NCBI GenBank assembly: GCA_038054875.1
Contig: JBBUJK010000009.1
Location: 1-53,484 of the forward strand
Direction: 5' to 3'
DNA from: Patescibacteria group bacterium
GTDB lineage: Bacteria > Patescibacteriota > Patescibacteriia > 2-12-FULL-57-11
Length of the DNA: 53,484 bases
The notes beneath the pieces were generated by a model. The model did not search any database. It was not told the DNA's origin and saw nothing but the letters and a program-made list of their open reading frames with translations. Made by a program: the position numbers and the translations under genes. How positions within the stretch are numbered: position 1 is the first letter of the stretch; each line of letters opens with the position of its first letter. Shown piece after piece: positions 7,908 to 30,271 of this stretch.

Positions 7908-8984
7908 CTATATCTCCACCCGGGCGTTGTCGCCGATGATGAACTTGTGCCCGTGCGGGCGGTTGCTTTGCTTGGAGGTGACGCATGCGTCCTTGCCGAT
8001 CAGCGAATCGACGATGCGGGCGTGGCAATCGACCGTGACGTTGTCGAAAATGATGCAGTGCTCGATTTCGGTATTGCGGATGGTGGTGCCATTGCCGATC
8101 GCGGTGTACGGGCCGATGTAGCTGGTTTCAATGGTGACGTTCTCGCCGATCGTCACCGGACCGCGGATGAGCACGCCCGGGCCGATCTTCGAACCCTTGC
8201 CGATGTGCACCTTGCCCTGGAGGGTCGCTGTGGGATCGATCTGGCCTTCGCGCGTCGCTTCCGCCGGCGTCATCTCATCCAAAATCAGCTGGTTGCCCTC
8301 GAGCAAGTCTTCCGGCTTGCCCGTGTCCTTCCACCAGCCGGTGATCTCTGCGTGACCGACGCTTCTTGCGTTGTTCAGATACCAGTTGTAGATCTCGGTG
8401 ATTTCGTACTCGCCGCGCGCGGACGGTTTGACGGTGTCGTACGCTTTGAAAAATTCGTTGTTGAAGAGGTAGAGACCGGTCACGGCAAAATCCGATTTCG
8501 GTACGGACGGCTTTTCCTCCAGCCGCACGATCTTGCCGTCGACGAATTCCGGCACGCCGAAGCGGCGGGAATCCGGGACTTTCGCGAGCGTCATGAGCGC
8601 GTCATGACCGCCACTCTTGAACTGTTCCACCAAGTGGCGGATGTTGCCGAGGATGATGTTGTCGGACAGGTAGAACAAAAACGGGCTGTCGCCGATCCAG
8701 GCTTCCGCCTGCTTGGGCACGTTGGCGATGCCGAGCGGCCCCCCCTGCTGCTCAAAGAAATGGATCTTGGCGCCCCACCGGCTGCCATCACCGATCACCT
8801 TTTGAAGTTCCGTCTCGTCCGGGTTGGTGTTGATGGCGATGTCCGTGATTCCTGCATCCACCACCTTTTCAATGGCATGAAAAATCATCGGCTTGTTGGC
8901 AAGCGGGATGAGATGCTTGTTCCAGGTGTGGGTGATGGGGCGCAGGCGCGTGGCGCGTCCGCCGCCCGTCAGCACGGCTTTCAT
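7908..8984 (-). CDS. rmlA: Glucose-1-phosphate thymidylyltransferase, long form with C-terminal left-handed beta-helix
   Basis: MKAVLTGGGRATRLRPIT..NKHLIPLANKPMI signature; C-terminal hexapeptide-repeat region (IGKGSKIGPGVLIRGPVTIGENVTI). Confidence 0.8.
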   Translation of the reverse strand: MKAVLTGGGRATRLRPITHTWNKHLIPLANKPMIFHAIEKVVDAGITDIAINTNPDETELQKVIGDGSRWGAKIHFFEQQGGPLGIANVPKQAEAWIGDSPFLFYLSDNIILGNIRHLVEQFKSGGHDALMTLAKVPDSRRFGVPEFVDGKIVRLEEKPSVPKSDFAVTGLYLFNNEFFKAYDTVKPSARGEYEITEIYNWYLNNARSVGHAEITGWWKDTGKPEDLLEGNQLILDEMTPAEATREGQIDPTATLQGKVHIGKGSKIGPGVLIRGPVTIGENVTIETSYIGPYTAIGNGTTIRNTEIEHCIIFDNVTVDCHARIVDSLIGKDACVTSKQSNRPHGHKFIIGDNARVEI

Positions 8985-12792: not shown

Positions 12793-12881
12793 GTCATCCT
12801 GAACAGTAGTGAAGGATCCTACCTGTTCATGCAAGGGCTCCAACAAGACCTGGAAGGATTCTTCGCTCCGCTCAGAATGAC
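12793..12881. repeat. Family A hairpin element, copy A1 (GTCATCCTGA..TCAGAATGAC)
   Basis: About 27-nt imperfect inverted arms around a 35-nt centre; homologous to 29459-29549 in the opposite orientation. Confidence 0.7.
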
Positions 12882-12888
12882 AGATGTG

Positions 12889-13218
12889 TTACTCGGTCAC
12901 GGACTCCAGATACACGCGCTCTTCGAACCCGCCGCGTTCGGCGAACTTCCCGGCGCGCACCGCCTCCAAGTTCTCATCGCTGATGCCGTGCACCTTCTGG
13001 AGCGCACACACCACTTCGAGCACGTCGGCCAGTTCGGCAACGAGCGCGTCGTAGGTCTGCGCACCCACGACTTCGTCCGCTTCCTCGCGGAGCTTATCGC
13101 GCAGGACACGCGCGTAATCGTCCTGCGGCAGGATGCGGGTCACCGGGCGGCCGCCTTTGGCCGTGATGACCTCGGGGATCTTATCGCGGACGAGTTTTCT
13201 GTAGTGGGTCGTCGACAT
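12889..13218 (-). CDS. MazG-like nucleoside triphosphate pyrophosphohydrolase (PRA-PH-like)
   Basis: YRKLVRDKIPE N-terminus and EEADEV..ELADVLEV acidic helices typical of the all-alpha NTP-PPase fold. Confidence 0.65.
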   Translation of the reverse strand: MSTTHYRKLVRDKIPEVITAKGGRPVTRILPQDDYARVLRDKLREEADEVVGAQTYDALVAELADVLEVVCALQKVHGISDENLEAVRAGKFAERGGFEERVYLESVTE

Positions 13219-13537
13219 AACGGGGGTCGGTCATTGCCCAGACCGCCGCGGCAACGGCGAGCGCAGCGAGCGGCGCAAGTGCCGCTCCGAGACGCGTCGG
13301 GACAGTGAAGACTACGAACGGCATGGTAGAGAGGCCGCACACGATGGTCAAGGCGATGCGCGCCGACGTAGGGGCGGGTTTCCCCCGCCCCGCACGATGG
13401 CCATACACGGCCCACGCCGCAAGCAACGCAGTCCAAGCTGCGGGCAACGGTAACGCCGTCGAGAAGATGCCCGGGTCGGCGAGCTCGAGCGCGGTGACGA
13501 TGGCGACGGTGGCGGTGGCGATGGTGAGGAAGATCAT
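13181..13537 (-). CDS. Small hydrophobic membrane protein (hypothetical)
   Basis: 118-aa ORF with 3-4 hydrophobic segments; 4-nt overlap with the upstream gene, 38-nt overlap with the MazG-like gene; contains a family C half-element. Confidence 0.4.
   Translation of the reverse strand: MIFLTIATATVAIVTALELADPGIFSTALPLPAAWTALLAAWAVYGHRAGRGKPAPTSARIALTIVCGLSTMPFVVFTVPTRLGAALAPLAALAVAAAVWAMTDPRYVDDPLQKTRPR
13368..13395. repeat. Family C half-element (GTAGGGGCGGGTTTCCCCCGCCCCGCAC)
   Basis: Single GGGGCGGG/CCCGCCCC hairpin with the GTAGGGGCG start of family C; read in frame as RAGRGKPAPT in the small membrane ORF. Confidence 0.5.
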
Positions 13538-14127
13538 AGGCCAAAACGATTGCGGACGGCCTCAAGCAGGGATGTGCGTGAAGCGGTCACAGAGAAGGTC
13601 GTGATCTGTGGCGCGTCCGCATACACCAATCCTGGAAGGGAAAGAACAACACGTAGCCGGTTGCCAGGGGTCGGTACATCGGACAACGGAATGGACGCCC
13701 GCAGCTCATGGATGAACATGCCCTGCACGATCCGCCCATCGAGATCGTAGACATTTTTGGTCAACAGGCCACCTTCGAAGAAACGGATCTGGCCGCTTCC
13801 CTCCCCGAACTCAACACCGATCCGTGCTGCGCGTGCGACCTCGTCGGGCAGACCGAAGAAGACCGCTTGCACATCGGCAACATCGAAGAACGTCGGCACA
13901 CGGACATCAACATAAAGCGGCTCACCGACGACCGTGCGCGCCGCATCCTGGGTGGGCGGGAGCGTGCGTGTCGGGGGTCCAAAGTCGGACATCTGCTGCG
14001 TCGGACCATGAAGTGACGAGCGCACGAGCCAGTTCTTCGCAAACAACCCATCCGCGGCAAGCAGGCCGAGGATGACGACGGCCCCGAAGACGATACCGAT
14101 CGCGTATTGAGAGCGGGTCGAGATCAT
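13534..14127 (-). CDS. Hypothetical protein with N-terminal membrane anchor
   Basis: 197-aa ORF, N-terminal TM helix (AIGIVFGAVVILGLLAA), 4-nt overlaps with both neighbours. Confidence 0.5.
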   Translation of the reverse strand: MISTRSQYAIGIVFGAVVILGLLAADGLFAKNWLVRSSLHGPTQQMSDFGPPTRTLPPTQDAARTVVGEPLYVDVRVPTFFDVADVQAVFFGLPDEVARAARIGVEFGEGSGQIRFFEGGLLTKNVYDLDGRIVQGMFIHELRASIPLSDVPTPGNRLRVVLSLPGLVYADAPQITTFSVTASRTSLLEAVRNRFGL

Positions 14128-15758
14128 TTGCGGACAGTCAGTTCGTAGACGGGGATGCTCTCGCCGCGCAGGTATGTGCGAACGGTCGCATCAACACCAA
14201 ACTTCACGAACACGGAACGTGCGGCAATCCTGCCATCGTCATGAAGATCGTCGATGTAATAGAAATGGTACGCCGTTCCGTAACGCGCGACCAAGTCAAT
14301 CGCTTGCTGGTCTTCCCACAGCGGACCCTCCAACGCGATAACGCGCCGTTCCGGAAAAAAAGCCTTGTCGAGCCGCTGCGTCAGGATGATGCCGTCCGGC
14401 GGGACGATCGCCTCCACGGCCGCTGCCATGCGTCGGTACTCCCTGGTACGGTAGTACGTCTGCTGTAACGACTCATTCGCTGTCACGAAAACCAAAGAGA
14501 AAGAAGCGACGATCATCCCAGCGAGCAGCACGCGTCCGACAATGCGTACGCGCAACTCCGGAAACCCTTCGAGCCGTTCCAAGGCGCCTGCTGCGGCGAT
14601 GCTCATGGCGAGCGCGATCGGCAACCAGTAGCGGACGTAGGAGCGGCCGACGGTGTTCACCGCGAGCATCAGCGGATCGGCGAACTGCCAGGAGCCGTAG
14701 AGCAGCACGAGGTAGCCGCAGACGAGCCCGGCGATCACGAGCGCGCCGCGTGCAAACATCCTGCGTTGGCGCGACGCATCGCCCCACGCTGCGTAACCGG
14801 CAAGTATGACGCCGACGACGGCCGGAATTGCGTACCACCAAAACGGCGCCAGGAAACTATCCCAGAACCGAGCAGCGGCGCGCAGCGGATGAATGCCGAA
14901 CGGAAAAATATACGCGAGCACGCCGCCAACAGATTCACTCGGCAACGCAATACCCGCTTCGCTGAAACGTGCGTAGCCCGCGAGCAGTGAGCCGAACAAA
15001 ACCTGTTGGAGCAAAAGCGTTGGCGCGATCGCCAGCGACAAGCCGAGGAACCAGGCAGCCGCCTGACGCCATCGGACCCCTCCAGCAACCCTCCTTGACA
15101 CGGGTGAACCAAAGGAAGTCGCCGCAAGCAATACGAGCAGCACTGGTACGGCCCACAGTGCCTCGGACAGTCGGATACCAAAGGCAAGGCCGGCGGCAGC
15201 ACCGGAGAGGGCGAACAGCGGCACGGCATGTTTCTTCTGGCTGCGCGCCAGCGCCATGCCCGCGGCAGACAAGATCAGCAGCGCCAGGAACGGAATATTC
15301 GGCAGATGCGTGAATGCCGCGAAGTACCAGGTCGCCGGATGAAACAGGAAAAGTACTGCGGAGAGTACTGCGTGCCGCTGACTGAGGACCGACCGCAGAG
15401 CGACGTACAAGCCGAATCCTGACGCGGCTGCAAGCAACGGCACGACGAAGAGCGATGCGGTATTGCCAAACACGCGTCCGACCGTGCCGAGCAGGATCGG
15501 CAGTCCGACGAAGCCGGCGGGCACGAGCATGCCGTCGCGCACGTTGACGCTCCGCGGATGCAACCGTCGCTCAAGCAATGCGATGTCCGGATCCTCAGCA
15601 GTAACAGACTCACCCGCGGCGATGCGGCGGGCGAAATAGGCGGTGCTTGTTTCATCCGGCCAGTCGAAACGCCAGGGTGCGCCGGACGCATTCACGAACG
15701 CCAGGATGGATGCGGTCAGGGCAAACACGGCGACTGCTGCCGCGAGCAACCGCTTCAT
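14124..15758 (-). CDS. Polytopic membrane protein, putative GT-C-fold glycosyltransferase (ArnT/PMT-like)
   Basis: ORF 14124..15884 trimmed to ATG 15758 (MKRLLAAAV..; ATGA overlap with upstream stop); more than 10 hydrophobic segments; DE motif after first TM (FDWPDETSTAYF). Confidence 0.5.
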   Translation of the reverse strand: MKRLLAAAVAVFALTASILAFVNASGAPWRFDWPDETSTAYFARRIAAGESVTAEDPDIALLERRLHPRSVNVRDGMLVPAGFVGLPILLGTVGRVFGNTASLFVVPLLAAASGFGLYVALRSVLSQRHAVLSAVLFLFHPATWYFAAFTHLPNIPFLALLILSAAGMALARSQKKHAVPLFALSGAAAGLAFGIRLSEALWAVPVLLVLLAATSFGSPVSRRVAGGVRWRQAAAWFLGLSLAIAPTLLLQQVLFGSLLAGYARFSEAGIALPSESVGGVLAYIFPFGIHPLRAAARFWDSFLAPFWWYAIPAVVGVILAGYAAWGDASRQRRMFARGALVIAGLVCGYLVLLYGSWQFADPLMLAVNTVGRSYVRYWLPIALAMSIAAAGALERLEGFPELRVRIVGRVLLAGMIVASFSLVFVTANESLQQTYYRTREYRRMAAAVEAIVPPDGIILTQRLDKAFFPERRVIALEGPLWEDQQAIDLVARYGTAYHFYYIDDLHDDGRIAARSVFVKFGVDATVRTYLRGESIPVYELTVRK

Positions 15759-16327
15759 ATCCCGTGCGTCAGGAGTGAGACCAATGCGAAGATGAGCGCG
15801 AGCGCAAACACGCCGAAGGAGATGGGAATGAACAAGTCGTATCCCGTGGCAATGGCGATGAGCAAGAGGAGCACGCCGGCGCATTGCAAGATCATCTTGA
15901 TTTTACCCCACGTGTTGGCCGGCTTGACGATGCCGCGACGTAAGCGGATGTACCCGCCAATAAGCGTCAACAACTCAAGCACGATGATCGTGATGCCTAA
16001 GAACGGATTGACGTGCTCAAAGACAATGACCACCACCATGGCGCCAATCAGGAGTTTGTCGGCCAATGGATCGAACAGCGTTCCCCACTCCGTAATCTGT
16101 TTCCGGGTGCGGGCCATAGCGCCATCGATCATGTCGGTCGAGGCGACGAGAAGGAAAGCAACGATGCCGGCGGTGGTGTGGTCGGCCGCTACAAGCCACA
16201 CCACGAACGGCGTGGCCAGGAAACGAAGGATGGTGATGTGGTTGGGAAGAACCCAACGAGGAATCAGCCGCAGAACGGTGACCTCGAGCAGCCGATCGTG
16301 GGGAAATGGAACCGATGGATCACGCAT
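15755..16327 (-). CDS. CDP-alcohol phosphatidyltransferase family protein
   Basis: D-x2-DG-x2-AR-x8-G-x3-D-x3-D motif: DMIDGAMARTRKQITEWGTLFDPLADK; track start 16357 is GTG, ATG at 16327 preferred. Confidence 0.8.
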   Translation of the reverse strand: MRDPSVPFPHDRLLEVTVLRLIPRWVLPNHITILRFLATPFVVWLVAADHTTAGIVAFLLVASTDMIDGAMARTRKQITEWGTLFDPLADKLLIGAMVVVIVFEHVNPFLGITIIVLELLTLIGGYIRLRRGIVKPANTWGKIKMILQCAGVLLLLIAIATGYDLFIPISFGVFALALIFALVSLLTHGI

Positions 16328-16357
16328 AGACGACGCGCACCGTGGTAATATGCGCAC

Positions 16358-18496
16358 ATGTCGCTGAGTTTTCCGAACTATACCACGGCCCTCCTGGCCC
16401 TTCTAGCGCTCAACCTCGCTGGAATCGGACTCGGTATTCCCCTGCTCGCCGCCCCTGCTGCAGCGCTCCTTGTGCTTCTTCAGGCGCTTGCCGTGGGAAC
16501 ATCTGCATTCCCAGCACAAGAATCTGGTCCACGCTGGGCGTACGGACTTACCATGCTCGTTTGCTGGTACGTCGTTGTCGGTGCGGCCGTCTATGCACTT
16601 GGTGACTTATCCGCCTCTGCCGTGTGTACCGTATGGGTGGCCACGAACGCCGGCGCCACAGCACTCGCACTGCGTGCCAAAAAGCTCGTCGTGATTGACC
16701 CTCCCAGCCCTCCCTTCGCAAGGGAGGGAATGATTCGCGCGACGCCGTTGATCGACGTCATCTTGGTTGGTGTGGTCGGCGCGTCCGCGTTTGTCGCGGC
16801 AGTGTTGCTGGCTCTGGGCCGAACGCAGGAAGCAATCCAATCGCCGTGGCAAACGGTCTCCCCCGCCTTCTTCGTTGCATTGTTCGCCGCGGCAGTCGCA
16901 CTCGTTGCGCTGCTCGCCCGCGGTCGGACGCGCGCAGCGCTTCCTGCCGCCGTACTTGTCGCGGCAGTTGCACTCTCCGTTGCGATCACCGTGTACGGCA
17001 TCGGCTATGGGTACGATCCGTTCATTCACCAGAAAGCGGAGGAGACCATTCTTTCGCAGGGCGTCATCCTGCCGAAGACGCCGTACTACCTCGGTCAATA
17101 TGCGCTGGTGACGATTGCCGCGCGCGTTTCACTGCTGCCGTATCTCGCGCTTGACCGCGCACTCGTTCCATTCGGGTTCGCTCTGCTGTTGCCACTCCTC
17201 GCTGCCGCTTTTGCACGAACGCTCCTGTCACGCGCGCCGTGGCGCATCGCCGCGCTCGCGCCGCTGCTCATCCCCTTTAGCGCGTACATCTCCACCACAC
17301 CAACCGGACTGGCCTACCTCTTTGCCGCGCTCGCCGCATTCGGCGCCGCGGCCTGGCGCGCTGAGGCGACCCCCCTTGGTCCCCCCTTGACAAGGGGGGC
17401 TGCCGGAGGGGTTCTCATGCTCGCCGGCACGCTCGCAGCATTGGCCACGCACCCGCTCGTCGGCATTCCCACGGCCGGTCTCGTACTGCTCGCCACGGCG
17501 GACGCAGCGCAAAAAAAATCACGCGTACTGCTCAACGGTCTCGGTACGCTCGTCATCCTTCTCGGTGTTCCTGCAGCGTTCCTCCTCAATGCCGCACGCG
17601 GCGGCACGATCCCTGTGTGGACCCATGCACCATTCGCGGTCCTGCGTTCACTCGTTGACGCCTGGCCGCACTTCGCGCCGACTGGCGAACTTCCGCTCGA
17701 TCTGCCATATCTCTGGCGCGCCGTGCTCCCGGTGCTGCTCGTTGGCGCAGCATGGATTGCCTGGCGCACCGCAAACGAAAAGCATCATGCTGCGCTCAAA
17801 CCACTTGCGATCGCTGCAACGCTGCTGCTTCCGGCCTACGCATTGCTCGGCCTTTTCCGCTTCCCGGAAGCCGGTGATGTCGGGGCAGCCGTGTTCCCCT
17901 TTCGCGCGCGGCTGCTCGAACTGGCCGCCGTGTTCCTCCTGCCCGCTGTCAGTATCGGACTCGTGGCAGCCTACGAAAAACTCGCACGCCTGCCTGCCGG
18001 ACAGGCAGGCGCACCGCTCGCCCGGCTGACCGCCTCCGGCGTCCTCGCAGCGACACTCGTCGCAGCCGTGTACATCTCGTATCCGCGTCTCGACCGCATC
18101 GAACCGTCGAAAGGCTACGCCGTCTCAGCGTCGACCGTGGCCGCCGTGCAGTGGATCGCCCGCGCCTGCCACGGACCGTACGTGGTGCTCGGCAACCAGA
18201 CCGTGGCCGCGGCCGCCATCCGAGAACTCGGCTTCGTCTCCTTCCCCGGCATCCCTTTTGCCTACGCCAACGAATCCGGCGCGCCGGAACTCAACGCGTT
18301 CTTCCTGAAAATGAACAACGCGCCGACACGCGCCACAGCCGTAGAAGCCATGGACGCCAACGGCGTGAACGAACTGTTCTTCGTGGTAAACGACTTCTGG
18401 AAAAACAGCTCCCGCATCGCAGAAGCTGCGACGCGGGAGGCGGATGACGTGATTGAAGTGGATGAATCGGTGACGATCTTCGTCTACCGCCGCTAG
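16358..18496 (+). CDS. Large polytopic membrane protein of unknown family (possible GT-C or polymerase-like)
   Basis: 712 aa, many hydrophobic helices, YGYDPFIHQKAEETI loop, soluble C-terminal domain; contains in-frame family D elements. Confidence 0.6.
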   Translation: MSLSFPNYTTALLALLALNLAGIGLGIPLLAAPAAALLVLLQALAVGTSAFPAQESGPRWAYGLTMLVCWYVVVGAAVYALGDLSASAVCTVWVATNAGATALALRAKKLVVIDPPSPPFAREGMIRATPLIDVILVGVVGASAFVAAVLLALGRTQEAIQSPWQTVSPAFFVALFAAAVALVALLARGRTRAALPAAVLVAAVALSVAITVYGIGYGYDPFIHQKAEETILSQGVILPKTPYYLGQYALVTIAARVSLLPYLALDRALVPFGFALLLPLLAAAFARTLLSRAPWRIAALAPLLIPFSAYISTTPTGLAYLFAALAAFGAAAWRAEATPLGPPLTRGAAGGVLMLAGTLAALATHPLVGIPTAGLVLLATADAAQKKSRVLLNGLGTLVILLGVPAAFLLNAARGGTIPVWTHAPFAVLRSLVDAWPHFAPTGELPLDLPYLWRAVLPVLLVGAAWIAWRTANEKHHAALKPLAIAATLLLPAYALLGLFRFPEAGDVGAAVFPFRARLLELAAVFLLPAVSIGLVAAYEKLARLPAGQAGAPLARLTASGVLAATLVAAVYISYPRLDRIEPSKGYAVSASTVAAVQWIARACHGPYVVLGNQTVAAAAIRELGFVSFPGIPFAYANESGAPELNAFFLKMNNAPTRATAVEAMDANGVNELFFVVNDFWKNSSRIAEAATREADDVIEVDESVTIFVYRR
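16697..16736 (+). repeat. Family D-like degenerate element (GACCCTCCCAGCCCTCCCTTCGCAAGGGAGGG..)
   Basis: CCCTCCCTTCG/CAAGGGAGGG palindrome with the same layout as family D; in frame as DPPSPPFAREGMI. Confidence 0.45.
17368..17414 (+). repeat. Family D palindromic element, copy D1, in frame within a CDS
   Basis: GACCCCCCTTGGTCCCCCCTTGACAAGGGGGGCTGCCGGAGGGGTTC, encodes TPLGPPLTRGAAGGV. Confidence 0.8.
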
Positions 18497-18505
18497 TGTT
18501 CACTT

Positions 18506-18577
18506 GTCATTCCCACGGAAGTGGGAATCCAGAACGACTAGCTGTGTTTTCTGGATCCCCGCGTCCACGGGGATGAC
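18506..18577. repeat. Family A-type hairpin element, copy A2 (GTCATTCCCACGGAAGTGGGAATCCAG..CTGGATCCCCGCGTCCACGGGGATGAC)
   Basis: Inverted arms, each itself a small palindrome; fills the gap between convergent genes. Confidence 0.7.
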
Positions 18578-18579
18578 AA

Positions 18580-20676
18580 TCAGACCTTCTTTCCTGAGGC
18601 CGTCCAGTGCCACGCCAGGTATTTCCCACCCGGCAGACGGAAGACGAACTCGTCGAAATACACGCACGCCTTTTCGAGCCACAGCGGCACGGCAAGGTGC
18701 TTTTTTGTTTTGAAGAGACGCGTGAAAAACCCCAGCGCGTAGTGGAGGAAACCGGCAGTGAACCACATCGGCTCGATGCGCACTTCGCTGAAATCGGATT
18801 CGATAAACAAGGCGCGCAGCTCGCCGCGCCAAAAGCCGCTGTGTTCCTCGTCGGCGACTGACTTGTCCGTGCGCTTGCCGAGGACAAACTCGAGGACGGG
18901 CTTCAACAGATTGATGAGACCGAAGTACAGCCGGTGCGGTTCCACGGCCGCGACGAAACGCGCCCCGGGAGCGAGCACGCGGCGGACTTCGCCCAAGACG
19001 ACGCGCGGATCTTCGGCATGATGGAGCGAAGCGGTCATCCAGGCACCGGCGAAGGCACCGTCGGCAACCGGAATGTGCTCGGCGTCCATGGTCGCGGCCA
19101 TGAAGCGTCCAGCACCTTCGGGAACCGCGGACAAAAGGCGTGCCGCACCTTCCACCGCGCCTTTGGAAATATCTGTTTCAACAACATGCATGCCGAGCTT
19201 CAGCGCCTCTGCAGCATCCTCTCCGCTGCCGCCGGCAAGCTCCAAGAGCCAACCGTCGGGTGCGACAGGGCGCAGATGGCGGAAGATGCGCTGGTGGTAG
19301 AAACGGTTACGGAACGCGTTCAGTTGATGCACGTCGGCGGCGTCGTGCGTGGCATGGTCGTGGTAGTGCGCCTCCTCGCGCTTGAATGCGGAAAGATCCT
19401 TGGGTAGCAAATCGAGGACCCCTCCGGCTTCCCCCCTTGCCAAGGGGGGACCAAGGGGGGTCGAGGAAACGAGCGCCAGCACCTGGCGTGCGTACTCGGA
19501 CGGACTGAGCAACGGCGGCAGCTTCTGCCAGCGCAGCGCAGCGCGACGCGCAGAATCAGACGCAGTGCGCACGGCGAACACGAACGCTGCGGAGTCGCCC
19601 GAGGCGAAGCGCCAGCCAGTTTCTCCGGAGACGACGTACTCCGGAATGCCGCCGACGTCAGCGACGACGACCGGCACGTGGCGCGCGGCCGCTTCAAAAA
19701 TCACGAGCGGTGCGTTCTCCAAACAGCGCGACGGCACGATCAGCGCATCGGCATGCTGCCAACGCTCCTCCTTGGCGGCGCCGTCGAGCGGTCCATGGAC
19801 GCGAATACGGGGATCGCGCGCGGCCAGCGCTTCGAGCGTGGCACGGTCACCGCCTGCACCGACGATGTCCAGGGTCCATTCGGCTTGTAGGGGCGCGGTT
19901 TTCGCGCCCGGGCGGGATGACCCCGCCCCTACGTCGACATTCACTAGTGTTTCCGCCGCCCACAACGCGCCCTTATGCGGTTCCAACTGCCCGATGAACA
20001 ACATGCGGAACGGTTGACCATGTAGGGGCGGGTATTCCCCGCCCGGGCGCGGGATACGCGCCCCTACCGCGACGACGTCCACAGGATTCGGAATCACGGC
20101 TTGGCGACTGCCAGAAAAAATACGCTGCATGCCAAGAAGCTTCTGCAACCATGCGCTCGGAAAAACTACCGCCTCAGGATTCCCCCAGCGACGGCGCGAC
20201 AGTGCAGACCAGATGCGGTTGCCGATGCGGTCGGCACGCTCGCCCGGGCGAAGCAGGCTGGGCTCAACCGGTTCAAAATCATGCGCGATGTGGACATGCG
20301 GTTGCGGCAGTGTCCGCAATGCGCGCGGCAACGGCCCGCCGAGACCTTTGATGTTCGCGGTGATGATCAGATCGGGACGAAGCGCACGGACACGCGCCAT
20401 GACTGCCACGGTCTGGCGATGGTCCACGAGTTCGGCGACGTTCCAACGGACGCGCGCCGCAAAGGGCTTCGCCAGGACGTCGCCAATCCAGGCGCGGCGT
20501 ACGGCAAGTCGATGAACGGCAACGCCGTCGACAATGTCTTCAGCCGCGCTGCGTGCCGTGGTCACGACATGCGGCTCGTGTCCGAGCGCACGCAACCCCT
20601 GGGCCAAAAGAGCGGTGGCGCGTTCGGCGCCGCCGCCGTCGGGCGGATACATGCCGGTCAAAAGGACGATTCTCAT
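18580..20676 (-). CDS. Fusion protein: N-terminal GT1 (GT4-type) glycosyltransferase plus C-terminal class I SAM methyltransferase
   Basis: ORF 18580..20784 trimmed to ATG 20676 (MRIVLLTGMYPPDGGGAERAT; ATGA overlap). GT1: FIGQLEPHKG, ENAPLVIFEAAARHVPVV. MT: LLELAGGSGEDA. Carries three in-frame palindromic elements. Confidence 0.8.
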   Translation of the reverse strand: MRIVLLTGMYPPDGGGAERATALLAQGLRALGHEPHVVTTARSAAEDIVDGVAVHRLAVRRAWIGDVLAKPFAARVRWNVAELVDHRQTVAVMARVRALRPDLIITANIKGLGGPLPRALRTLPQPHVHIAHDFEPVEPSLLRPGERADRIGNRIWSALSRRRWGNPEAVVFPSAWLQKLLGMQRIFSGSRQAVIPNPVDVVAVGARIPRPGGEYPPLHGQPFRMLFIGQLEPHKGALWAAETLVNVDVGAGSSRPGAKTAPLQAEWTLDIVGAGGDRATLEALAARDPRIRVHGPLDGAAKEERWQHADALIVPSRCLENAPLVIFEAAARHVPVVVADVGGIPEYVVSGETGWRFASGDSAAFVFAVRTASDSARRAALRWQKLPPLLSPSEYARQVLALVSSTPLGPPLARGEAGGVLDLLPKDLSAFKREEAHYHDHATHDAADVHQLNAFRNRFYHQRIFRHLRPVAPDGWLLELAGGSGEDAAEALKLGMHVVETDISKGAVEGAARLLSAVPEGAGRFMAATMDAEHIPVADGAFAGAWMTASLHHAEDPRVVLGEVRRVLAPGARFVAAVEPHRLYFGLINLLKPVLEFVLGKRTDKSVADEEHSGFWRGELRALFIESDFSEVRIEPMWFTAGFLHYALGFFTRLFKTKKHLAVPLWLEKACVYFDEFVFRLPGGKYLAWHWTASGKKV
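19416..19462 (-). repeat. Family D palindromic element, copy D2, in frame at the GT1/MT junction
   Basis: Minus strand GACCCCCCTTGGTCCCCCCTTGGCAAGGGGGGAAGCCGGAGGGGTCC, encodes TPLGPPLARGEAGGV. Confidence 0.8.
19887..19932. repeat. Family C double-hairpin element, copy C1, in frame within the GT1 domain
   Basis: GTAG-GGGCGCGgttttCGCGCCC-GGGCGGGatgacCCCGCCC-CTAC; read as VGAGSSRPGAKTAPL. Confidence 0.8.
20032..20077. repeat. Family C double-hairpin element, copy C2 (inverted relative to C1), in frame within the GT1 domain
   Basis: GTAG-GGGCGGGtattcCCCGCCC-GGGCGCGggataCGCGCCC-CTAC; read as VGARIPRPGGEYPPL. Confidence 0.8.
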
Positions 20677-21836
20677 GGGGTGTACATGATCCCGCGCACC
20701 ACAACATCGAGCCGCGCCGGCAATCCGGAGAGCGCATATTGTTCGAGCGCAATCGTCCGAGCGACCGCGCCCATGCGGCTGCATTCCGCCGGATCAGCGG
20801 CCAGACGTGCCAATGCCGCGGCAAGTTCCTGCACGTTCGCAGGTTCAACGAGCAATCCGGTTCGGCCTTCTTCAACGACCGTGCGCACGCCAGGCAGGCG
20901 CGACGCGACGACCGCTTTGCCGGAGGCCATGGCTTCGAGCACGACGAGTCCGAACGCTTCGGAACGGTCGATTGACGACAGCACCGTGAAATCGGCCAGG
21001 CGGTAAAAATCCGGCAGCTCATCGGAGAGCGCGTTGCCCACGAACCGCACCTGCTCGACCACGCCGAGCGTGTGCGCCATGGCTTCATAGCGCGAACGCA
21101 GATCCCCTTCTCCCACAACGACGAGACCAAGCGGCGTGGCGGTACGATTCACATGCGCCACAGCGCGCAGAAGCACTTCGAGTCCTTTGAAGTAGTGGGC
21201 GGTGTCGAGACCACCGACGAAGAGCGCGAGCGGGAGATTTGGATCGAGCTTCAGACGTTCGCGGAGCGCGACAGACGCCGATCCAGGCGCGAAGCGGTCG
21301 GTATCGACTGCCGGTGCCAATTCCACGAGTCGGTCGGCTGGCGTGCGTCCCCAGAGCCCCGCGAGCGTGCCAGTCATCGCGTAATCGAAGGTGGAGACGA
21401 TCAGCCGATCGGCACTTTTCACGATCCACGGCAGGAACAATCGCGTGTACATGGTGAACAACGAATCGCGCGGCGGCTGGCCGACGAGGTCCATGTGATA
21501 ATAGACGGCGAGTCGGCCGCCGGTGGCGCGCATACGACGGGCCAGTGCGACCGCTTCGGCTCCGCCCAAAAATGGATAGTGTAAAAAGATCAGGTCCGCG
21601 CCGCGCACCGCCGTGTAGAGCTGCGGCAGGAATGCGGCGTTGCCAATGGAGAGCGGCGCGCGCAAAAAGTGAACGGTGTACCCTTCCCGCTCTTCGACGC
21701 GCGAGGCGCCCTCGATCGGGGTGAACACGTCCACCTGGTGTCCCAGACGCGCCAATGCGGCCGCTTGTTGAGCGGCGAGGTTCCCCATGCCGCCGCGATA
21801 CGGCGGGAACGTGGAAACGACAACGGCAATACGCAT
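20673..21836 (-). CDS. Glycosyltransferase family 1 (GT4-type)
   Basis: MRIAVVVSTFPPYRGGMGN, SEAFGLVVLEAMASGKAVVAS (E-x7-E region). Confidence 0.85.
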   Translation of the reverse strand: MRIAVVVSTFPPYRGGMGNLAAQQAAALARLGHQVDVFTPIEGASRVEEREGYTVHFLRAPLSIGNAAFLPQLYTAVRGADLIFLHYPFLGGAEAVALARRMRATGGRLAVYYHMDLVGQPPRDSLFTMYTRLFLPWIVKSADRLIVSTFDYAMTGTLAGLWGRTPADRLVELAPAVDTDRFAPGSASVALRERLKLDPNLPLALFVGGLDTAHYFKGLEVLLRAVAHVNRTATPLGLVVVGEGDLRSRYEAMAHTLGVVEQVRFVGNALSDELPDFYRLADFTVLSSIDRSEAFGLVVLEAMASGKAVVASRLPGVRTVVEEGRTGLLVEPANVQELAAALARLAADPAECSRMGAVARTIALEQYALSGLPARLDVVVRGIMYTP

Positions 21837-23382: not shown

Positions 23383-26073
23383 TCAGCCTTTTGGTTTCTC
23401 ACCAATATGGACGCGGACCAATTCAGTAAAGCTTTTCACGGGATACTTTTCCCACACCTCTTCGCGGACGTACAGCATCTCATACCGGAAACGTTTCTGC
23501 GCTGCCGTCGCGTCCGCGCACCATTGCGCGAGCCGGGCAATCTTTCCGGGGTCCTCCACGTCTTCACGGCCTTTCGTCTCGATCACATAGATCGTCTTCG
23601 GATCGACTTTGACGAGAAAGTCAGGCACGTACCCGGCAATTCCACCTTCTGCCGTCCGGTACTCGATCTTGAATCCGAGCGCATCGTGGTTCTTCACGTA
23701 GGAGACGATGTCCTCACAGCCGTCAAGGAAGCGCGCGAATGCATACTCGAGGGAGCTGTCGCCGACGAAACGGCCAAGGATGCTTTTCTTTGAAAGAAGA
23801 TACTCCTGCTGTTTGGCGACGAACGGCTTCATGTCGCTCGCCCTGATGTACCGGCGTACCTCCACGGCGCCTCCCGTATCTTCAACGGTGAGTCTATTAA
23901 TCTCGCGTTTGAACGTCTCGATGATGGCCTTCGTCGCTTCCGGCTCGGAGAGGTTCTTCACGACGGCCGGTTCGTCCAGATGGACGGTTTCGCCGAACAG
24001 ACGCGTCCCGACGAAGTCACGCAGCTTCCCGAAGAGGATGTCGTACCCCGTTACGAGATGCATGTCCTGCATGATCTCCCGCGCGAAGAAACCGAGCGCG
24101 TTTCGCCAATCGGGCGCCTCGCCCTCGACCCACGCGATCTCGTGCGACACTTCCCCACTAACGACCTTACGGAAGACGATCTTCTCCAGATCCTTCTTCG
24201 CATAGCTGCGCCGGTCGATGGAAGAGAACGCGAACGCAGTGACGTCGAGATGCTCCAGGTTCCGATGTTCCTGCCGTAAACGCGGCGTGAGCACCGGCAC
24301 CTCGATGTCGAGCAGGTCGAGATTCTTCTTTTCGTTCTTCTTATCGACCTCGACGATCACCGGGCTCACCGCCCGGTTCTCCATATCCATGCGCCGGTAT
24401 GTGAGTTCGACGCCCTCGCGCTTGATGTGTTCCACGAACTCCATGAATGCCGGCGTACCAATTACGGCAACCTCCTCGGGCACACCCTGGCCGAAGTACA
24501 TGAGACGCAAACCGCGGCCGAGCGTCTGCTCGGGCAGAATGTTGCTCTTCGATGAATAGGCGCGCAGACCGACGATAGTCGTGACGTTCCGGACGTCCCA
24601 ACCCTCTTTGAGCATCAGCACGGAAACGACGGCGCGATACTTACTTTCGTTGCTGTCGATGTCGTTCGCTTCGTCGCGCAGCCGACGAAGTTCCTCATCG
24701 TCCTTCTTTCCCCGGCCTTCCACGATGTCGCCGGACTTGTTGGTGTGGATCGTGAGCACGCGACCGCGCAAGTCGGGATAGCGCAGTTCGAGATGCTTGG
24801 CGACGTCGTCGCAGTTCGTGGTGTCGTCGGTCATGACGAAGAGAATCGCTTTTTTGCCGACCTTCGCGTGTTCCTCAAAGCTCTTTTGCCATTCGAGATA
24901 ACCGACGTGCAGAAAATGCTGATACCGTTCAATGAACTGCGCGGACGTTTCCTCCTTGAGTTTCGCCTGGCTGGCGGCATCGGGAAGCACGGGATGCTTG
25001 ACCACGCCCTGCTGGATGGCCTCGACGAGCGGATAGTCGCAGACCACCTGCGGGAACAGCCTCCCCTTCTCGCTGCGAGGCGTTGCCGAGACGTCAATCT
25101 GCAACGAAAGTTCCTTCCCCTTGAGCTTGAGCTGCGCGGCGATGTCCGTGATCGACTCGAACCAGACCTTTTCGTCGTTGATGTGGTGAGCCTCGTCGTT
25201 CAACACCATCAGCTCGTCGATGTCGCGGACGATGTCGCCGAGATCCACGCGGCTGTCGTTCGTCTTTGCGACCGGCTTTGGTCCCAGGAAATACTCCGTG
25301 GACAACTTTTTTATCTCGACGTCGCCGGCATACACGCGATGAATGTTCGTCAAAAAGATGTTGCCGTACTTCGAGACCATGCCGACACTGTCCTGCAAGT
25401 GCAGGCGCGGCTGGAAGTCGGTGTGCCAATCACGACCCTCGAAGCCGTCGTCCGGCAACATCGGATCGTCGAAGAACAGCTTCAGACCTTCAAAGTCGTG
25501 CTTGATACGTTCGAGGACGATGATGTTCGGCGTTATTACCAGAAAGTTCTTGGAGAGCGCGGAGTCGGTTTCGTACGTCCGGTGGAAATAGCTCCAGACG
25601 ATGAGTAGCGCGAGCACCTTCGTCTTGCCGGAACCTGTGGCCATCTTGAGCACGAGACGCGGCCAGTTCTCGGCGAACAAGCCCGTCGCCAGGCGACCGG
25701 TCGCGTCGAAGTGCAGCAGGTCGACCGGATTGCGAACGCCCACGACCTCGTGCAGATAGATGACGGTTTCAACCGCTTCGCGCTGCGCGAAGTAATACCG
25801 AAACGGCCGCGACTCGCCGTCGGCGCCCGTAACGACATGGCTCTCGATGAACCACCAGCGCAGCAGCGTCTTCGACGTCACGCTCGCACCGGCATAGCCG
25901 CTCTCGCGCCACTCCTTCACCTTCCGCCGTACGGTCGGCACGAGCGGCGGCAACAAATCTTCCCCGCGCTTCCCACGGTCTTCTTCATCGACAGGAACCC
26001 ACCGGACCTCGGGGTCCAGGATGGCATACGGATCTTTGGGAAAATCGGGGTGGAGGGACATGGGTGTGGACAA
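23383..26073 (-). CDS. res: Type III restriction enzyme, Res subunit (SF2 helicase plus PD-ExK nuclease)
   Basis: Walker A MATGSGKTKV, DEAH box LNDEAHHI, motif VI QTLGRGLR, C-terminal nuclease motif VPDFLVKV..YVIETKG. Confidence 0.9.
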   Translation of the reverse strand: MSTPMSLHPDFPKDPYAILDPEVRWVPVDEEDRGKRGEDLLPPLVPTVRRKVKEWRESGYAGASVTSKTLLRWWFIESHVVTGADGESRPFRYYFAQREAVETVIYLHEVVGVRNPVDLLHFDATGRLATGLFAENWPRLVLKMATGSGKTKVLALLIVWSYFHRTYETDSALSKNFLVITPNIIVLERIKHDFEGLKLFFDDPMLPDDGFEGRDWHTDFQPRLHLQDSVGMVSKYGNIFLTNIHRVYAGDVEIKKLSTEYFLGPKPVAKTNDSRVDLGDIVRDIDELMVLNDEAHHINDEKVWFESITDIAAQLKLKGKELSLQIDVSATPRSEKGRLFPQVVCDYPLVEAIQQGVVKHPVLPDAASQAKLKEETSAQFIERYQHFLHVGYLEWQKSFEEHAKVGKKAILFVMTDDTTNCDDVAKHLELRYPDLRGRVLTIHTNKSGDIVEGRGKKDDEELRRLRDEANDIDSNESKYRAVVSVLMLKEGWDVRNVTTIVGLRAYSSKSNILPEQTLGRGLRLMYFGQGVPEEVAVIGTPAFMEFVEHIKREGVELTYRRMDMENRAVSPVIVEVDKKNEKKNLDLLDIEVPVLTPRLRQEHRNLEHLDVTAFAFSSIDRRSYAKKDLEKIVFRKVVSGEVSHEIAWVEGEAPDWRNALGFFAREIMQDMHLVTGYDILFGKLRDFVGTRLFGETVHLDEPAVVKNLSEPEATKAIIETFKREINRLTVEDTGGAVEVRRYIRASDMKPFVAKQQEYLLSKKSILGRFVGDSSLEYAFARFLDGCEDIVSYVKNHDALGFKIEYRTAEGGIAGYVPDFLVKVDPKTIYVIETKGREDVEDPGKIARLAQWCADATAAQKRFRYEMLYVREEVWEKYPVKSFTELVRVHIGEKPKG

Positions 26074-26084
26074 CTATTGACTTT

Positions 26085-26657
26085 TTATTCTTTTCCCAGT
26101 ATATTCTTCGTATCACTACGAAGAAGACCCCTGTCGGGCTCGTCCCGACCGGGGGCTTTTTCATTTTTGGCCTCCAAGATTTGCTGCTGATCACCGATGT
26201 AGGCAATAGGCGCATTTGTGCGTTTGAGCAGCACCGAACACTTTTTTGCTGCTGCCGGGGAGAGAATGATTTTCAGACATTTCTTTTCCTGCCAAAACTT
26301 CACGAGCGGCGTGTAGTCACCATCACTCGTGACGAGAACCGCCTGCGCGCAACCGCCTTCGTATGTATCCCGCATGGCCTGCGTCACGAGATCGGCATCG
26401 CAGTTACCCTTCGGCTTGCCGTTACCGTCGTAGATGACTTCTTTAAAAACCAAGGTAAAACCCGCCTCCTGAAGAGAGGTGTAAAGATCTTTGTATTTGG
26501 GGATCAGACCGATAAAAAGATACGCGCGACTCACGCCGTATTTATCGGAGAGCCACACGCGAAAACGCGCATAATCCAAAACCCAACCCTGCTCCTTCAC
26601 GCCCTGATGCAGGTTCGCGCCATCTATATAAGCGATGATGCCAGCCGCTGGTTTCAT
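26085..26657 (-). CDS. NYN-domain (LabA/DUF88-like, PIN-related) predicted nuclease
   Basis: Conserved acidic residues YIDGANL, GNCDADLV, VTSDGDYTPLV; the last ~25 codons overlap two hairpins. Confidence 0.75.
   Translation of the reverse strand: MKPAAGIIAYIDGANLHQGVKEQGWVLDYARFRVWLSDKYGVSRAYLFIGLIPKYKDLYTSLQEAGFTLVFKEVIYDGNGKPKGNCDADLVTQAMRDTYEGGCAQAVLVTSDGDYTPLVKFWQEKKCLKIILSPAAAKKCSVLLKRTNAPIAYIGDQQQILEAKNEKAPGRDEPDRGLLRSDTKNILGKE
26104..26170. other. Tandem stem-loops in the 3' end of the NYN gene, just upstream of res
   Basis: TTCTTCGTA-tcac-TACGAAGAA (perfect 9 bp) and CCCCTGTCGGG-ctcgt-CCCGACCGGGG (one mismatch), followed on the plus strand by TTTTTCATTTTT. Confidence 0.6.
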
Positions 26658-26711
26658 AGATTGGCCAGAACGGCGTACGGATCTATCGGGAAGTCAGGAT
26701 GGAGGTACATA

Positions 26712-27248
26712 TCAACGGCGCCGTTTGGGTATAATTCGTCGCGATTTTATAATGTTTCTCACTTCTTTAGTGTGGATTTTTTGACGGCTCGCCACGACCT
26801 TCTCACCGATAATGACAACAACCGCGAGTGCTGCTAACCCCCATCTCCACGGAATCGACATCGCCTCAATCCTCTGATTGAGAGAAGCCACGGCGTGGCT
26901 TATCGGCCAACCGTTGTCTGCCGTTTTTGGCTGAAGGTTAATTACCAGGTCGCAATCATTGCCGCTCTGGGCACCGCTATACGTGTAACACGTTCCCAGC
27001 CCTATATGTGTAGCAAGTGTTCGCTCCTGGAAGTCTGGATCATCTCTTGGCCAAAGTTCGTACAGCAAGGAAAAACTACCGTCTTCCCTACTAATCTGTC
27101 TGATCCTCCGTGCTTTCAAATGGCTTAGCGCTTCCAGAGTTTCTTTCTCTCTGGGAAACAAAAAAGATAAGTCATTGATAAGCCAACCAGCTGCAGCTAG
27201 TAGAATGCTTACTGTAAAAAGAACACTTCTAGCTACCCTCATAGTCAT
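26712..27248 (-). CDS. Hypothetical two-TM membrane protein inside the R-M operon
   Basis: 178 aa, N-terminal and C-terminal hydrophobic helices, Cys-containing middle domain, basic tail KSRRIIPKRRR; ATGA overlap with mod stop; lower GC than the locus. Confidence 0.55.
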   Translation of the reverse strand: MTMRVARSVLFTVSILLAAAGWLINDLSFLFPREKETLEALSHLKARRIRQISREDGSFSLLYELWPRDDPDFQERTLATHIGLGTCYTYSGAQSGNDCDLVINLQPKTADNGWPISHAVASLNQRIEAMSIPWRWGLAALAVVVIIGEKVVASRQKIHTKEVRNIIKSRRIIPKRRR

Positions 27249-29389: not shown

Positions 29390-29407
29390 GATGACCAATC
29401 TTCCAAC

Positions 29408-29458: not shown

Positions 29459-29549
29459 GTCATTCTGAGGCGGCTGCCGAAGAATCCTTCCGGTCCTTGT
29501 CAGAGCTCTTGCGTGAACTGGCAGGATCCTTCGCTCCGCTCAGGATGAC
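29459..29549. repeat. Family A hairpin element, copy A3 (inverted relative to A1)
   Basis: GTCATTCTGAGGCGGCTGCCGAAGAATCC..GGATCCTTCGCTCCGCTCAGGATGAC; the centre is the reverse complement of the A1 centre with scattered substitutions. Confidence 0.7.
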
Positions 29550-29560
29550 AGAGCGGGGTC

Positions 29561-30271
29561 TCATCGCAGTGCACGTCTTACTATCAAACGGCCCAACGTC
29601 TTCAATCCCATCACAAAACTCTGCCCTTTGGAAAGCGAGTAGGTCGTGTAGACGCTCTTGATCGGCACTTCCACGAGCCGGAGCTTGTGCCGGAAAATCT
29701 CGGCGACGATCTCGGATGAGACTTCCATGCGGTCGGTGCGGATCTGTATCTGCTCGGCGGCTGCGCGGGAAAAAGCGCGCAGTCCGGACTGCGAATCGGA
29801 GACGTGTGCGCCAAAGAGTGCGGCGGTCACGACGTTGCCGATGCGATTGGCAACGCGACGGACGAATGGCATCCCCTCTTTGGTGAGCATGCGACTGCCG
29901 ATCACGACGTCCGCACGTCCTTCCCGAATCGGCGCGAGCATGGCGGCAACGTCTTCCGGCCGGTGCTGTCCGTCCGCATCGAACGTGAGCACGATGTCGG
30001 CGCCGTCCGCGAGCGCGGCACGGATGCCGGTGGCAATTGCCGCGCCGAGCCCGCGGTTCAAAACGTGACGGATCACGTGGACACCCCCACCAGTTTCCCC
30101 CCTTGTCAAGGGGGGACCAAGGGGGGTGACGACACGCGCAACATCGGCCGTACTGTCCGTCGATCCGTCATCCACGACGATGATCGCATCGACGCGCGAC
30201 AAAAGACCATCGAGGACCTCCCCGATGGCCTGTGCTTCATTCCATGCGGGAACGACGGCGACAACCTTCAT
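29561..30271 (-). CDS. Glycosyltransferase family 2 (polyprenyl-phosphate glycosyltransferase, DPM1/GtrB-like)
   Basis: MKVVAVVPAWNEAQAI, VVDDGSTDST, NRGLGAAIATG, TFDADGQH; carries family D copy D3. Confidence 0.85.
   Translation of the reverse strand: MKVVAVVPAWNEAQAIGEVLDGLLSRVDAIIVVDDGSTDSTADVARVVTPLGPPLTRGETGGGVHVIRHVLNRGLGAAIATGIRAALADGADIVLTFDADGQHRPEDVAAMLAPIREGRADVVIGSRMLTKEGMPFVRRVANRIGNVVTAALFGAHVSDSQSGLRAFSRAAAEQIQIRTDRMEVSSEIVAEIFRHKLRLVEVPIKSVYTTYSLSKGQSFVMGLKTLGRLIVRRALR
30080..30128 (-). repeat. Family D palindromic element, copy D3, in frame within the GT2 gene
   Basis: Minus strand CACCCCCCTTGGTCCCCCCTTGACAAGGGGGGAAACTGGTGGGGGTGTC, encodes TPLGPPLTRGETGGGV. Confidence 0.8.

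Follow-up and report, generated by a model that had tools for sequence, protein, structure and literature searches.

GTAG-tagged palindromic repeats read in frame within protein-coding genes of a Patescibacteria genome

Repeat elements and their host genes

Here, we describe short palindromic repeats that are read in frame within two genes of a groundwater organism of very small genome, a Patescibacteria group bacterium (GenBank assembly GCA_038054875.1, contig JBBUJK010000009.1, positions 1 to 53,484). This whole 53,484-nt stretch is called the window, its genome is called WIN where genomes are compared, and the loci compared with it carry L-numbers. Two 46-nt elements, C1 and C2, lie in one gene of the sugar-nucleotide and glycosyltransferase cluster that makes up the window, and a single 23-nt unit lies in a second, much smaller gene. 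All three belong to the GTAG-tagged superfamily of repetitive extragenic palindromic (REP) sequences.

The gene with C1 and C2 (18580..20676, minus strand) encodes a protein of 698 aa, hereafter GT4-MT, that joins a GT4 glycosyltransferase of GT-B fold to a C-terminal class I methyltransferase, with Pfam matches to Glyco_transf_4, Glycos_transf_1 and, at the C-terminus, Methyltransf_11. The open reading frame (ORF) itself extends over 734 aa (18580-20784, minus strand); comparison with orthologues places the true start at M37, and there is a 4-nt overlap with the upstream GT4 gene. The closest named relative of the protein shares 83% identity and is annotated by NCBI as Patescibacteria group bacterium (855-kb contig). 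Gene order around GT4-MT is conserved, and the syntenic L121 locus is 97.7% coding.

The gene is intact. It can be ruled out as a pseudogene because it keeps residues that are invariant among homologues, including E320 and E328 (invariant across 18 homologues), which we interpret as the E-x7-E motif of GT4 enzymes. The idea that an intrinsic terminator divides the gene was also rejected, as the ORF and its domains continue on both sides. So was an assembly artefact: the gene is nucleotide-identical in an independent Logan assembly (L129, 5.5 kb), a near-identical strain from a groundwater metagenome (L159) carries the same two dimers 135 nt apart, and four groundwater runs span the gene without breaks. 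The single unit resides in a gene for a small hydrophobic protein of 118 aa (13181..13537, minus strand) that is syntenic in L121, L128, L131, L130, and L124, and it lies between two hydrophobic stretches that, from the sequence, we take to be membrane helices.

The basic unit comprises 23 nt, GTAGGGGCGSG-N5-CSCGCCC, i.e., GTAG followed by a G/C stem of 7 bp (7-8 bp) that encloses a 5-nt loop. With up to two mismatches allowed, this pattern occurs five times in the window as compared to 0.03 expected occurrences, a count that was reached in 0 of 100 shuffles, and GTAG is present at the start of all five units. C1 (19887..19932, 46 nt, GTAGGGGCGCGGTTTTCGCGCCCGGGCGGGATGACCCCGCCCCTAC) is a head-to-head heterodimer with zero spacer and outward GTAG that adds 15 codons. 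Its unit a (19887..19909, plus strand) consists of GTAG, the stem GGGCGCG/CGCGCCC, and the loop GTTTT, and its unit b (19910..19932, minus strand) of GTAG, the stem GGGCGGG/CCCGCCC, and the loop GTCAT. C2 (20022..20067, 46 nt, GTAGGGGCGGGTATTCCCCGCCCGGGCGCGGGATACGCGCCCCTAC) is a zero-spacer heterodimer like C1 in which the unit types swap order, with a unit of GCGGG-type stem first (20022..20044, plus strand, loop TATTC) and a unit of GCGCG-type stem second (20045..20067, minus strand, loop TATCC). As each dimer combines one GCGCG-stem with one GCGGG-stem unit, it is not a single long perfect palindrome. The single unit (13368..13390, plus strand, GTAGGGGCGGGTTTCCCCCGCCC) has GTAG, a GGGCGGG stem, and the loop TTTCC, and is without a closing CTAC.

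An earlier note on this DNA, made from the sequence alone, had located C1 exactly and had correctly recognized C2 as its inverted arrangement, but had placed C2 10 nt too high, at 20032-20077. It had further reported a half-copy at 13368-13395; this copy is real, yet it is one complete unit and not half of anything. The same applies to its view of the repeat as a whole, which is genuine, although the GTAG-tagged REP superfamily went unrecognized and the 46-nt element consists of two 23-nt units. On the minus strand, C2 is read as VGARIPRPGGEYPPL (residues 204-218 of 698), C1 as VGAGSSRPGAKTAPL (residues 249-263), and the single unit as (A)GRGKPAPT (residues 49-57 of 118), in line with the peptides given previously. 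A stop-free design had been proposed as well, which had to be abandoned. In a six-frame test, frames 1 and 3 were open on both strands and frame 2 hit a stop, because the GTAG head is read as TAG in frame 2 of each strand, leaving four of six frames open.

Folded as single-stranded DNA, each 46-mer forms two adjacent 7-bp hairpins with the flanking GTAG and CTAC unpaired (-19.9 to -20 kcal/mol; z = -4.3 to -4.7), which is the structure of two sub-hairpins described before. The outer 9-11 bp of the dimers (GTAGGGGCG / CGCCCCTAC) are able to pair, and RNA folds yield a closed three-way or long hairpin of -32 to -35 kcal/mol, the two-hairpin form being the minimum for DNA. A search against Rfam gave no match anywhere in the window, and in the literature the literal string GTAGGGGCG was matched by unrelated primers only.

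Position of the inserts in the protein

An AlphaFold2 model of residues 1-410 of GT4-MT (mean predicted local distance difference test, pLDDT, 85.4; predicted template modelling score, pTM, 0.86) retrieved GT-B fold proteins with Foldseek, with MshA, BshA, and PimA as top matches. In this model, both inserts occupy surface loops of an otherwise confident GT-B structure. Values of pLDDT below 50 are confined to residues 205-217 (C2), residues 252-259 (inside C1), the short loop 140-142, and the C-terminal end 406-410, and the block 251-260 of C1 has a mean of 47. C2 is placed between helix 201-204 and strand 223-228, i.e., in the linker into the C-terminal Rossmann domain, and C1 between the first helix (237-250) and the second strand (267-272) of the C-terminal domain. 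The earlier assignment of the inserts to loops of the GT-B fold agrees with the model, whereas the assignment of both to the GT1 domain does not, as C2 sits at the boundary between domains. The modelled outgroup orthologue P0009, which is without palindromes, has the same order of secondary structure elements with shorter loops (a 6-residue loop versus 16 residues in the window protein). We saw no evidence that the host protein requires the inserts.

Turnover of the elements among orthologues

Orthologues of GT4-MT were compared in ten genomes, eight of the ingroup (WIN, L121, L123, L126, L127, L124, L131, L128) and two outgroups (L130, L132), with the ingroup branching as (((WIN, L121, L123, L126), L127), (L124, L131)), L128. 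At the C1 site, WIN and L126 carry the 46-nt dimer with differing loops, L121 and L123 carry a 28-nt palindrome of GCGTAT type (GTAGGGGCGTAT-N4-ATACGCCCCTAC), and six of ten sites are empty (L127, L124, L131, L128, L130, L132), i.e., C1 is occupied solely in the clade of WIN, L121, L123, and L126. Every one of the eight ingroup genomes has a palindrome at the C2 site, in seven different versions with perfect or near-perfect stems: the identical 46-nt dimer in WIN and L121, GTAGGGGTTGATAATTATCAACCCCTAC in L126, GTAGGGGCGGGGTTGTCCCGCCCCAAC in L123, GTTGGGGCATGGCGCGCCATGCCCCAAC in L127, GTAGGGGCGTATGGCAATACGCCCCTAC in L124, GCAGGGGCGCAGCACGCTGCGCCCCTGC in L131, and a 55-nt dimer with other stems in L128. 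In the two outgroups, this site holds no palindrome but unrelated sequence of similar length. In the comparison with empty sites that the earlier note had called for, C1 is empty in some orthologues, and C2 shows replacement at a site always occupied in the ingroup instead of a simple filled/empty contrast. Conservation of the segments in unrelated orthologues, which according to that note would have spoken against inserted repeats, was not observed; the segments are absent from the outgroup orthologues and from other GT4 homologues.

Maintenance of the palindromes is most apparent in seven aligned 28-mers with a 12-bp stem, in which 84 of 84 cells form Watson-Crick pairs, changes on both sides are seen in 7 of 12 pairs, and G-U pairs are absent (zero); shuffle and slide controls of this stem pairing all score far lower. 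Judged from the aligned orthologues, the elements have been gained, replaced, and held palindromic as nucleotide sequences. Conservation does not concern the encoded peptides, which change completely among orthologues while palindromy stays. C2 is identical between WIN and L121 over 46 of 46 nt, with an identity of only 0.62 at fourfold-degenerate sites, and the longest identical run in this gene pair (51 nt) starts exactly at C2. Similarly, the single unit is identical over 23 of 23 nt in WIN, L121, and L128 despite diverged flanks (fourfold-site identity ~0.5); the L124 version is degenerate and of the same length.

Movement is indicated by the GCGTAT-type 28-mer, which occurs at three non-homologous sites, namely C1 (L121, L123), C2 (L124), and a GT2 gene (L123). 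The GT2-gene copy (8037-8064) is private to L123, and the site is empty in six orthologues. In L121, WIN, and L127, the empty GT2 site reads GCAGGGG or ACGGGC, similar to the REP head GTAGGGG, which may point to insertion favouring head-like targets, in sequence that is highly diverged. Apparent GTAGGGG/CCCCTAC heads in a Bac_transf gene (window 36006; L123 927; L124 916) were discarded, as they are just conserved codons for F-P-Y.

Permanent occupation of C2 by hairpins of almost entirely changed sequence, with stems perfect or near-perfect and never lost, raises the question of whether a functional cis-acting hairpin is selected there, and perhaps also at the single unit, with the REP family merely supplying the material. 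Such a hairpin could act as a ribosome pause between the Rossmann domains, as a signal for processing or stability of the operon mRNA, or as a protein-binding site, and both the high stability of the RNA hairpins and a nucleotide identity at the element above the synonymous background would fit this role. We regard selection for such a function as unlikely, given that the same elements are found at unrelated positions of unrelated genes, that C1 and the GT2-gene copy are polymorphic among close relatives, and that the palindrome is lacking from outgroup orthologues; moreover, the lack of G-U pairs fits DNA-level symmetry rather than a structure of RNA only.

A native protein-level loop that happens to look palindromic, or an assembly artefact, has very little probability. 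In its favour, the Gly/Pro/Ala-rich peptides resemble numerous natural loops, and GT4 enzymes vary in this loop region. Against such an origin stand the replacement of the peptide with palindromy kept, the recurrence of the same DNA in unrelated genes, the chance expectation of 0.03 units in the window, and the identical gene in the independent L129 assembly together with unbroken coverage of the gene by L159 and several runs.

Copies in other genomes and metagenomes

The 23-nt unit was found in at least 120 genome loci, and figures on genome loci given here refer to the matches listed. They comprise Chloroflexota, Cyanobacteria, Poribacteria, Clostridia, delta-proteobacteria, Armatimonadota, and Planctomycetes-related metagenome-assembled genomes (MAGs) as well as two other Patescibacteria, and the unit occurs there as single GTAG-headed hairpins, as 27-nt palindromes, and as inverted pairs with spacers. 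The exact zero-spacer dimer pattern was recovered in 38 copies from 36 metagenome loci (L133-L168). The earlier proposal of a dispersed palindromic repeat family that lies in frame within real genes is borne out by these further copies in many loci, and a lack of additional copies, which would have counted against it, was not encountered.

All 38 metagenome dimers are heterodimers of one GCGGG-stem and one GCGCG-stem unit, although the search pattern permitted homodimers. They are read as VGA...PL in 30 cases and in the other open frame in eight (binomial p = 0.0005). The dimers fall within open frames of 100 aa or more at the same rate as random positions in these loci (95% versus 95%), whereas single units, from the listed genome loci of other phyla, are rarer in long frames (56% versus 90%). 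Each of ten tested dimer hosts is a housekeeping gene in which Pfam matches cover or flank the position of the insert: LeuRS, CysRS, isocitrate/isopropylmalate dehydrogenase, TsaD, a radical-SAM protein, YjeF, ATP sulfurylase, MutY, MaoC hydratase, and MoeA. The same insert is present in the same gene in two pairs of loci, L141/L146 (CysRS) and L134/L152 (LeuRS).

Closer to the window, a copy sharing 90% identity or more with C1 is present on at least five other contigs of its groundwater metagenomes, with unrelated flanks; one of these contigs has the same depth as the window's contig. Copies seen in the lineage itself are the three window sites and the GT2-gene copy of L123, every one of them intragenic. 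In a Candidatus Uhrbacteria MAG (L005, 2700-4600), a GTAG unit is read in frame as RGRGNPAPT close to the N-terminus of a protein. A different recurring in-frame segment, HALTPSRPHAL, is found in two ORFs of this locus, including the N-terminal part of a 534-aa ORF that, by our own reading, looks like a CCA-adding enzyme.

Mode of spread

We assign a probability of about 0.8 to the interpretation that C1, C2, and the single unit are copies of a GTAG-tagged REP family, i.e., small, non-autonomous, selfish palindromic DNA. A trans-acting HUH transposase belonging to the type of REP-associated tyrosine transposases (RAYT), also termed TnpA(REP), would copy such elements, or exchange them, in the form of single-stranded hairpins. 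The enzyme would recognize GTAG plus hairpin, and a resident element would itself supply such a site and be preferred by the next arrival, which would explain overwriting instead of loss at the occupied C2 site. Both the participation of this transposase and the replacement mechanism are inferred. In a genome with ~98% coding DNA, a copy would survive only where it lengthens the gene by a multiple of three bases (27, 45, or 54 nt), is read in one of the four open frames as a short Gly/Pro/Ala-rich peptide, and lies in a tolerant surface loop, such as the GT-B interdomain linker, the loop from the first helix to the next strand in the C-terminal domain, or the loop between apparent membrane helices.

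Several observations weigh against this interpretation. No RAYT/Y1 transposase was detected in the 34 window ORFs scanned with Pfam (a subset of all ORFs) or in the gene tables of the orthologous loci L121-L132, and a six-frame motif scan of the window and all loci, i.e., of these loci and not of the whole genome, yielded no RAYT for the lineage. Comparison of filled with empty sites allowed no rule to be derived for a target site or its duplication, as the loops are too diverged. Loop lengths at C1 and C2 differ by 4-16 codons and not by exactly 9 or 15, so that clean filled/empty pairs are missing. Finally, C2 is never vacant in the ingroup, which is more than expected of neutral junk and could reflect selection on the hairpin.

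RAYT-like genes were present in two of the genome loci listed that carry the unit (n=120), L004 and L009. The ORF in L009 has NF047646 as its best match at 61 bits, below the cutoff of 80 bits. In the delta-proteobacterial MAG contig CAVYJK010000020.1 (L004, 7439-7998), two halves of a RAYT-like gene match positions 6-63 and 69-135 of the NF047646 profile, lie in different frames, and are parted by a REP dimer of the GGGGCGGGG family described here, directly after the HUH motif. It may be that the repeat has this transposase gene, too, as a host; alternatively, the frame shift may be a homopolymer error of long reads. Two candidate arrangements of a RAYT between an inverted pair of REPs were rejected: L005 2831-5418 contains the presumed CCA-adding enzyme and other genes, and L112 4518-5221 an ORF that in our reading resembles Mn-catalase, neither of them with a transposase.

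The absence of a local transposase would suit a process that needs none, in which template switching within a strand perfects quasi-palindromes and gene conversion spreads the copies. Changes between the sister genomes L124 and L131 are compensated on both sides, with no half-changed intermediates, and the variants in L126 and L127 are palindromic right through the centre, both as such a process would predict. We nevertheless consider it improbable, and more so than a selected hairpin. The finding of identical 28-nt and 46-nt sequences in many organisms and at sites that are not homologous calls for copying between loci, the shared ends of just 7-9 nt are judged too short for ordinary homologous conversion, and the conserved unpaired GTAG tag is a hallmark of RAYT substrates (PMC8266576).

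Within the framework of a GTAG-tagged REP family, it is tempting to speculate that C2 is a fixed landing pad, filled ever since this clade arose, at which REP cassettes are serially swapped by a hairpin-specific enzyme or are kept perfect by selection, a strong hairpin where the two Rossmann domains meet (or a DNA site) being useful to the host, and that, more broadly, the 45-nt zero-spacer VGA...PL heterodimer is a REP form specialized for genes. The latter idea builds on dimers being in genes as often as random positions, being always heterodimeric, and having a frame bias of 30:8. We put forward both as doubtful, if attractive, extensions; if true, C2 would be a domesticated intragenic REP and not junk.

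Other repeats and features of the window

A second in-frame palindromic repeat with the core CCCCCCTTG-N-CAAGGGGGG, presumably family D of the earlier note, occurs at 15077-15119, 17367-17416, 19414-19463, and 30080-30127. The copies at 17367, 19414, and 30080 are read as TPLGPPL(A/T)RG(E/A)xGG in three different genes, and the copy at 15077 is degenerate. One copy forms a linker (residues 405-419) of GT4-MT, which brings the repeat inserts in that gene to three. A palindromic repeat of ~75 nt (GAAGGATCC...GGATYCTTC, ending in TTCGCTCCGCTCAGRATGACAGA) lies at 12808-12884 and 29478-29552; the two copies are 77-83% alike, 16.6 kb apart, and located at gene ends. The GT4-MT gene converges with a 712-aa ORF, and the 83 nt that separate them (18497-18579) contain two more hairpins, GTCATTCCCAC-GGAA-GTGGGAATC and GGATCCCCG...CGGGGATGAC, which look like a different, extragenic family of palindromic repeats.

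The glycan cluster further encloses a type III-like restriction-modification block (23383-29398) with a ResIII helicase/nuclease (23383-26073) and an N6_N4 DNA methylase (27245-29398). Its G+C content of 0.53-0.54 compares with ~0.61, and it is without counterpart in the syntenic loci L121, L123, L124, and L128. The block is likely an inserted island.

Comparison with known systems

The phenomenon is already known, and the elements of the window are not a new kind of element. In the survey by Di Nocera, De Gregorio and Rocco (2013; PMC3733652), REPs are short, dispersed stem-loops of 20-40 bp that are mostly extragenic, with intragenic members explicitly allowed, and the GTAG-tagged superfamily is marked by an unpaired GTAG tag and stems of 6-13 bp. 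Head-to-head and tail-to-tail dimers with spacers of 0-2 bp are described, with a preference for heterodimers that was suggested to protect against hairpin removal. As compared with this description, the tag, the stem (7-8 bp, loop 5 nt), the dispersal, and the head-to-head heterodimers are all matched here; the extragenic habit is not, a departure in habit and not in structure. The supplementary table of that survey provides a direct precedent for C1 and C2 in Opitutus terrae, where GTAG-17 dimers insert 15 residues (VAGVADPGPGSASPA) into the products of dozens of housekeeping genes, in some cases twice in one gene. Common to both are outward GTAG dimers that are read from the GTA codon and Gly/Pro/Ala-rich inserts of 15 aa, with VAGVADPGPGSASPA there and VGAGSSRPGAKTAPL here. 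The stem sequence differs (GGGCGSG here). Our placement is at the level of the superfamily rather than of any particular one of the survey's 24 families.

REPIN-RAYT systems, in which paired REPs are associated with a RAYT, are described by Bertels and Rainey (2011; PMC3116915), and the biochemistry of TnpA(REP) is given in PMC3479197 and PMC8266576. GTAG plus hairpin is the substrate that TnpA(REP)/RAYT recognizes and cleaves, and group 3 REPs typically have short perfect palindromes (PMC8266576). Shared with these systems are two inverted REPs able to form a larger hairpin, GTAG before short perfect palindromes as in substrates of group 3 RAYTs, long persistence in a lineage, and evidence of movement in the form of lineage-limited C1 and GT2-gene copies and a 28-mer at three sites. 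Classical REPINs have a spacer and are extragenic, whereas the elements described here have zero spacer and are intragenic. In such systems, the RAYT (an HUH Y1 transposase; NF047646, PF01797) is encoded once in the genome that holds the REPs, typically with cognate REPs on its flanks. A REPtron arrangement was not seen for the lineage.

Rickettsia palindromic elements (RPE) resemble the present repeats in being palindromic and in frame in functional genes of a reduced genome. RPE-1 spans ~100-150 bp and encodes segments of 30-50 aa. The elements described here measure 23-46 nt (8-15 aa), and those of Rickettsia carry the tag CGTC and belong to another phylum, which makes for analogous behaviour and not for membership. 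In the view of Di Nocera et al. (PMC3733652), RPE-4 and RPE-6 are REPs themselves, of CGTC type.

In a full-text literature search, no paper turned up in which REP or RAYT terms are combined with Patescibacteria or the candidate phyla radiation. Beyond the known phenomenon, our findings thus extend the range of GTAG-REPs to this radiation and reveal an exclusively intragenic habit in a genome with ~98% coding DNA, where selfish DNA persists as short in-frame peptides in protein loops. They also provide a metagenome-wide view of the 45-nt heterodimer as a gene-tolerant REP form. For annotation, recurrent segments of VGAG..RPGA..APL type and low-confidence loops in metagenome proteins find an explanation in these elements and should not be taken for conserved motifs. 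Set against the survey (PMC3733652), the distinguishing features of the present case are a host from a Patescibacteria lineage with almost no intergenic DNA and serial replacement at a fixed site, which emerges here only, from the orthologues; the C2 series of eight genomes represents a compact natural data set on REP replacement and palindrome upkeep.

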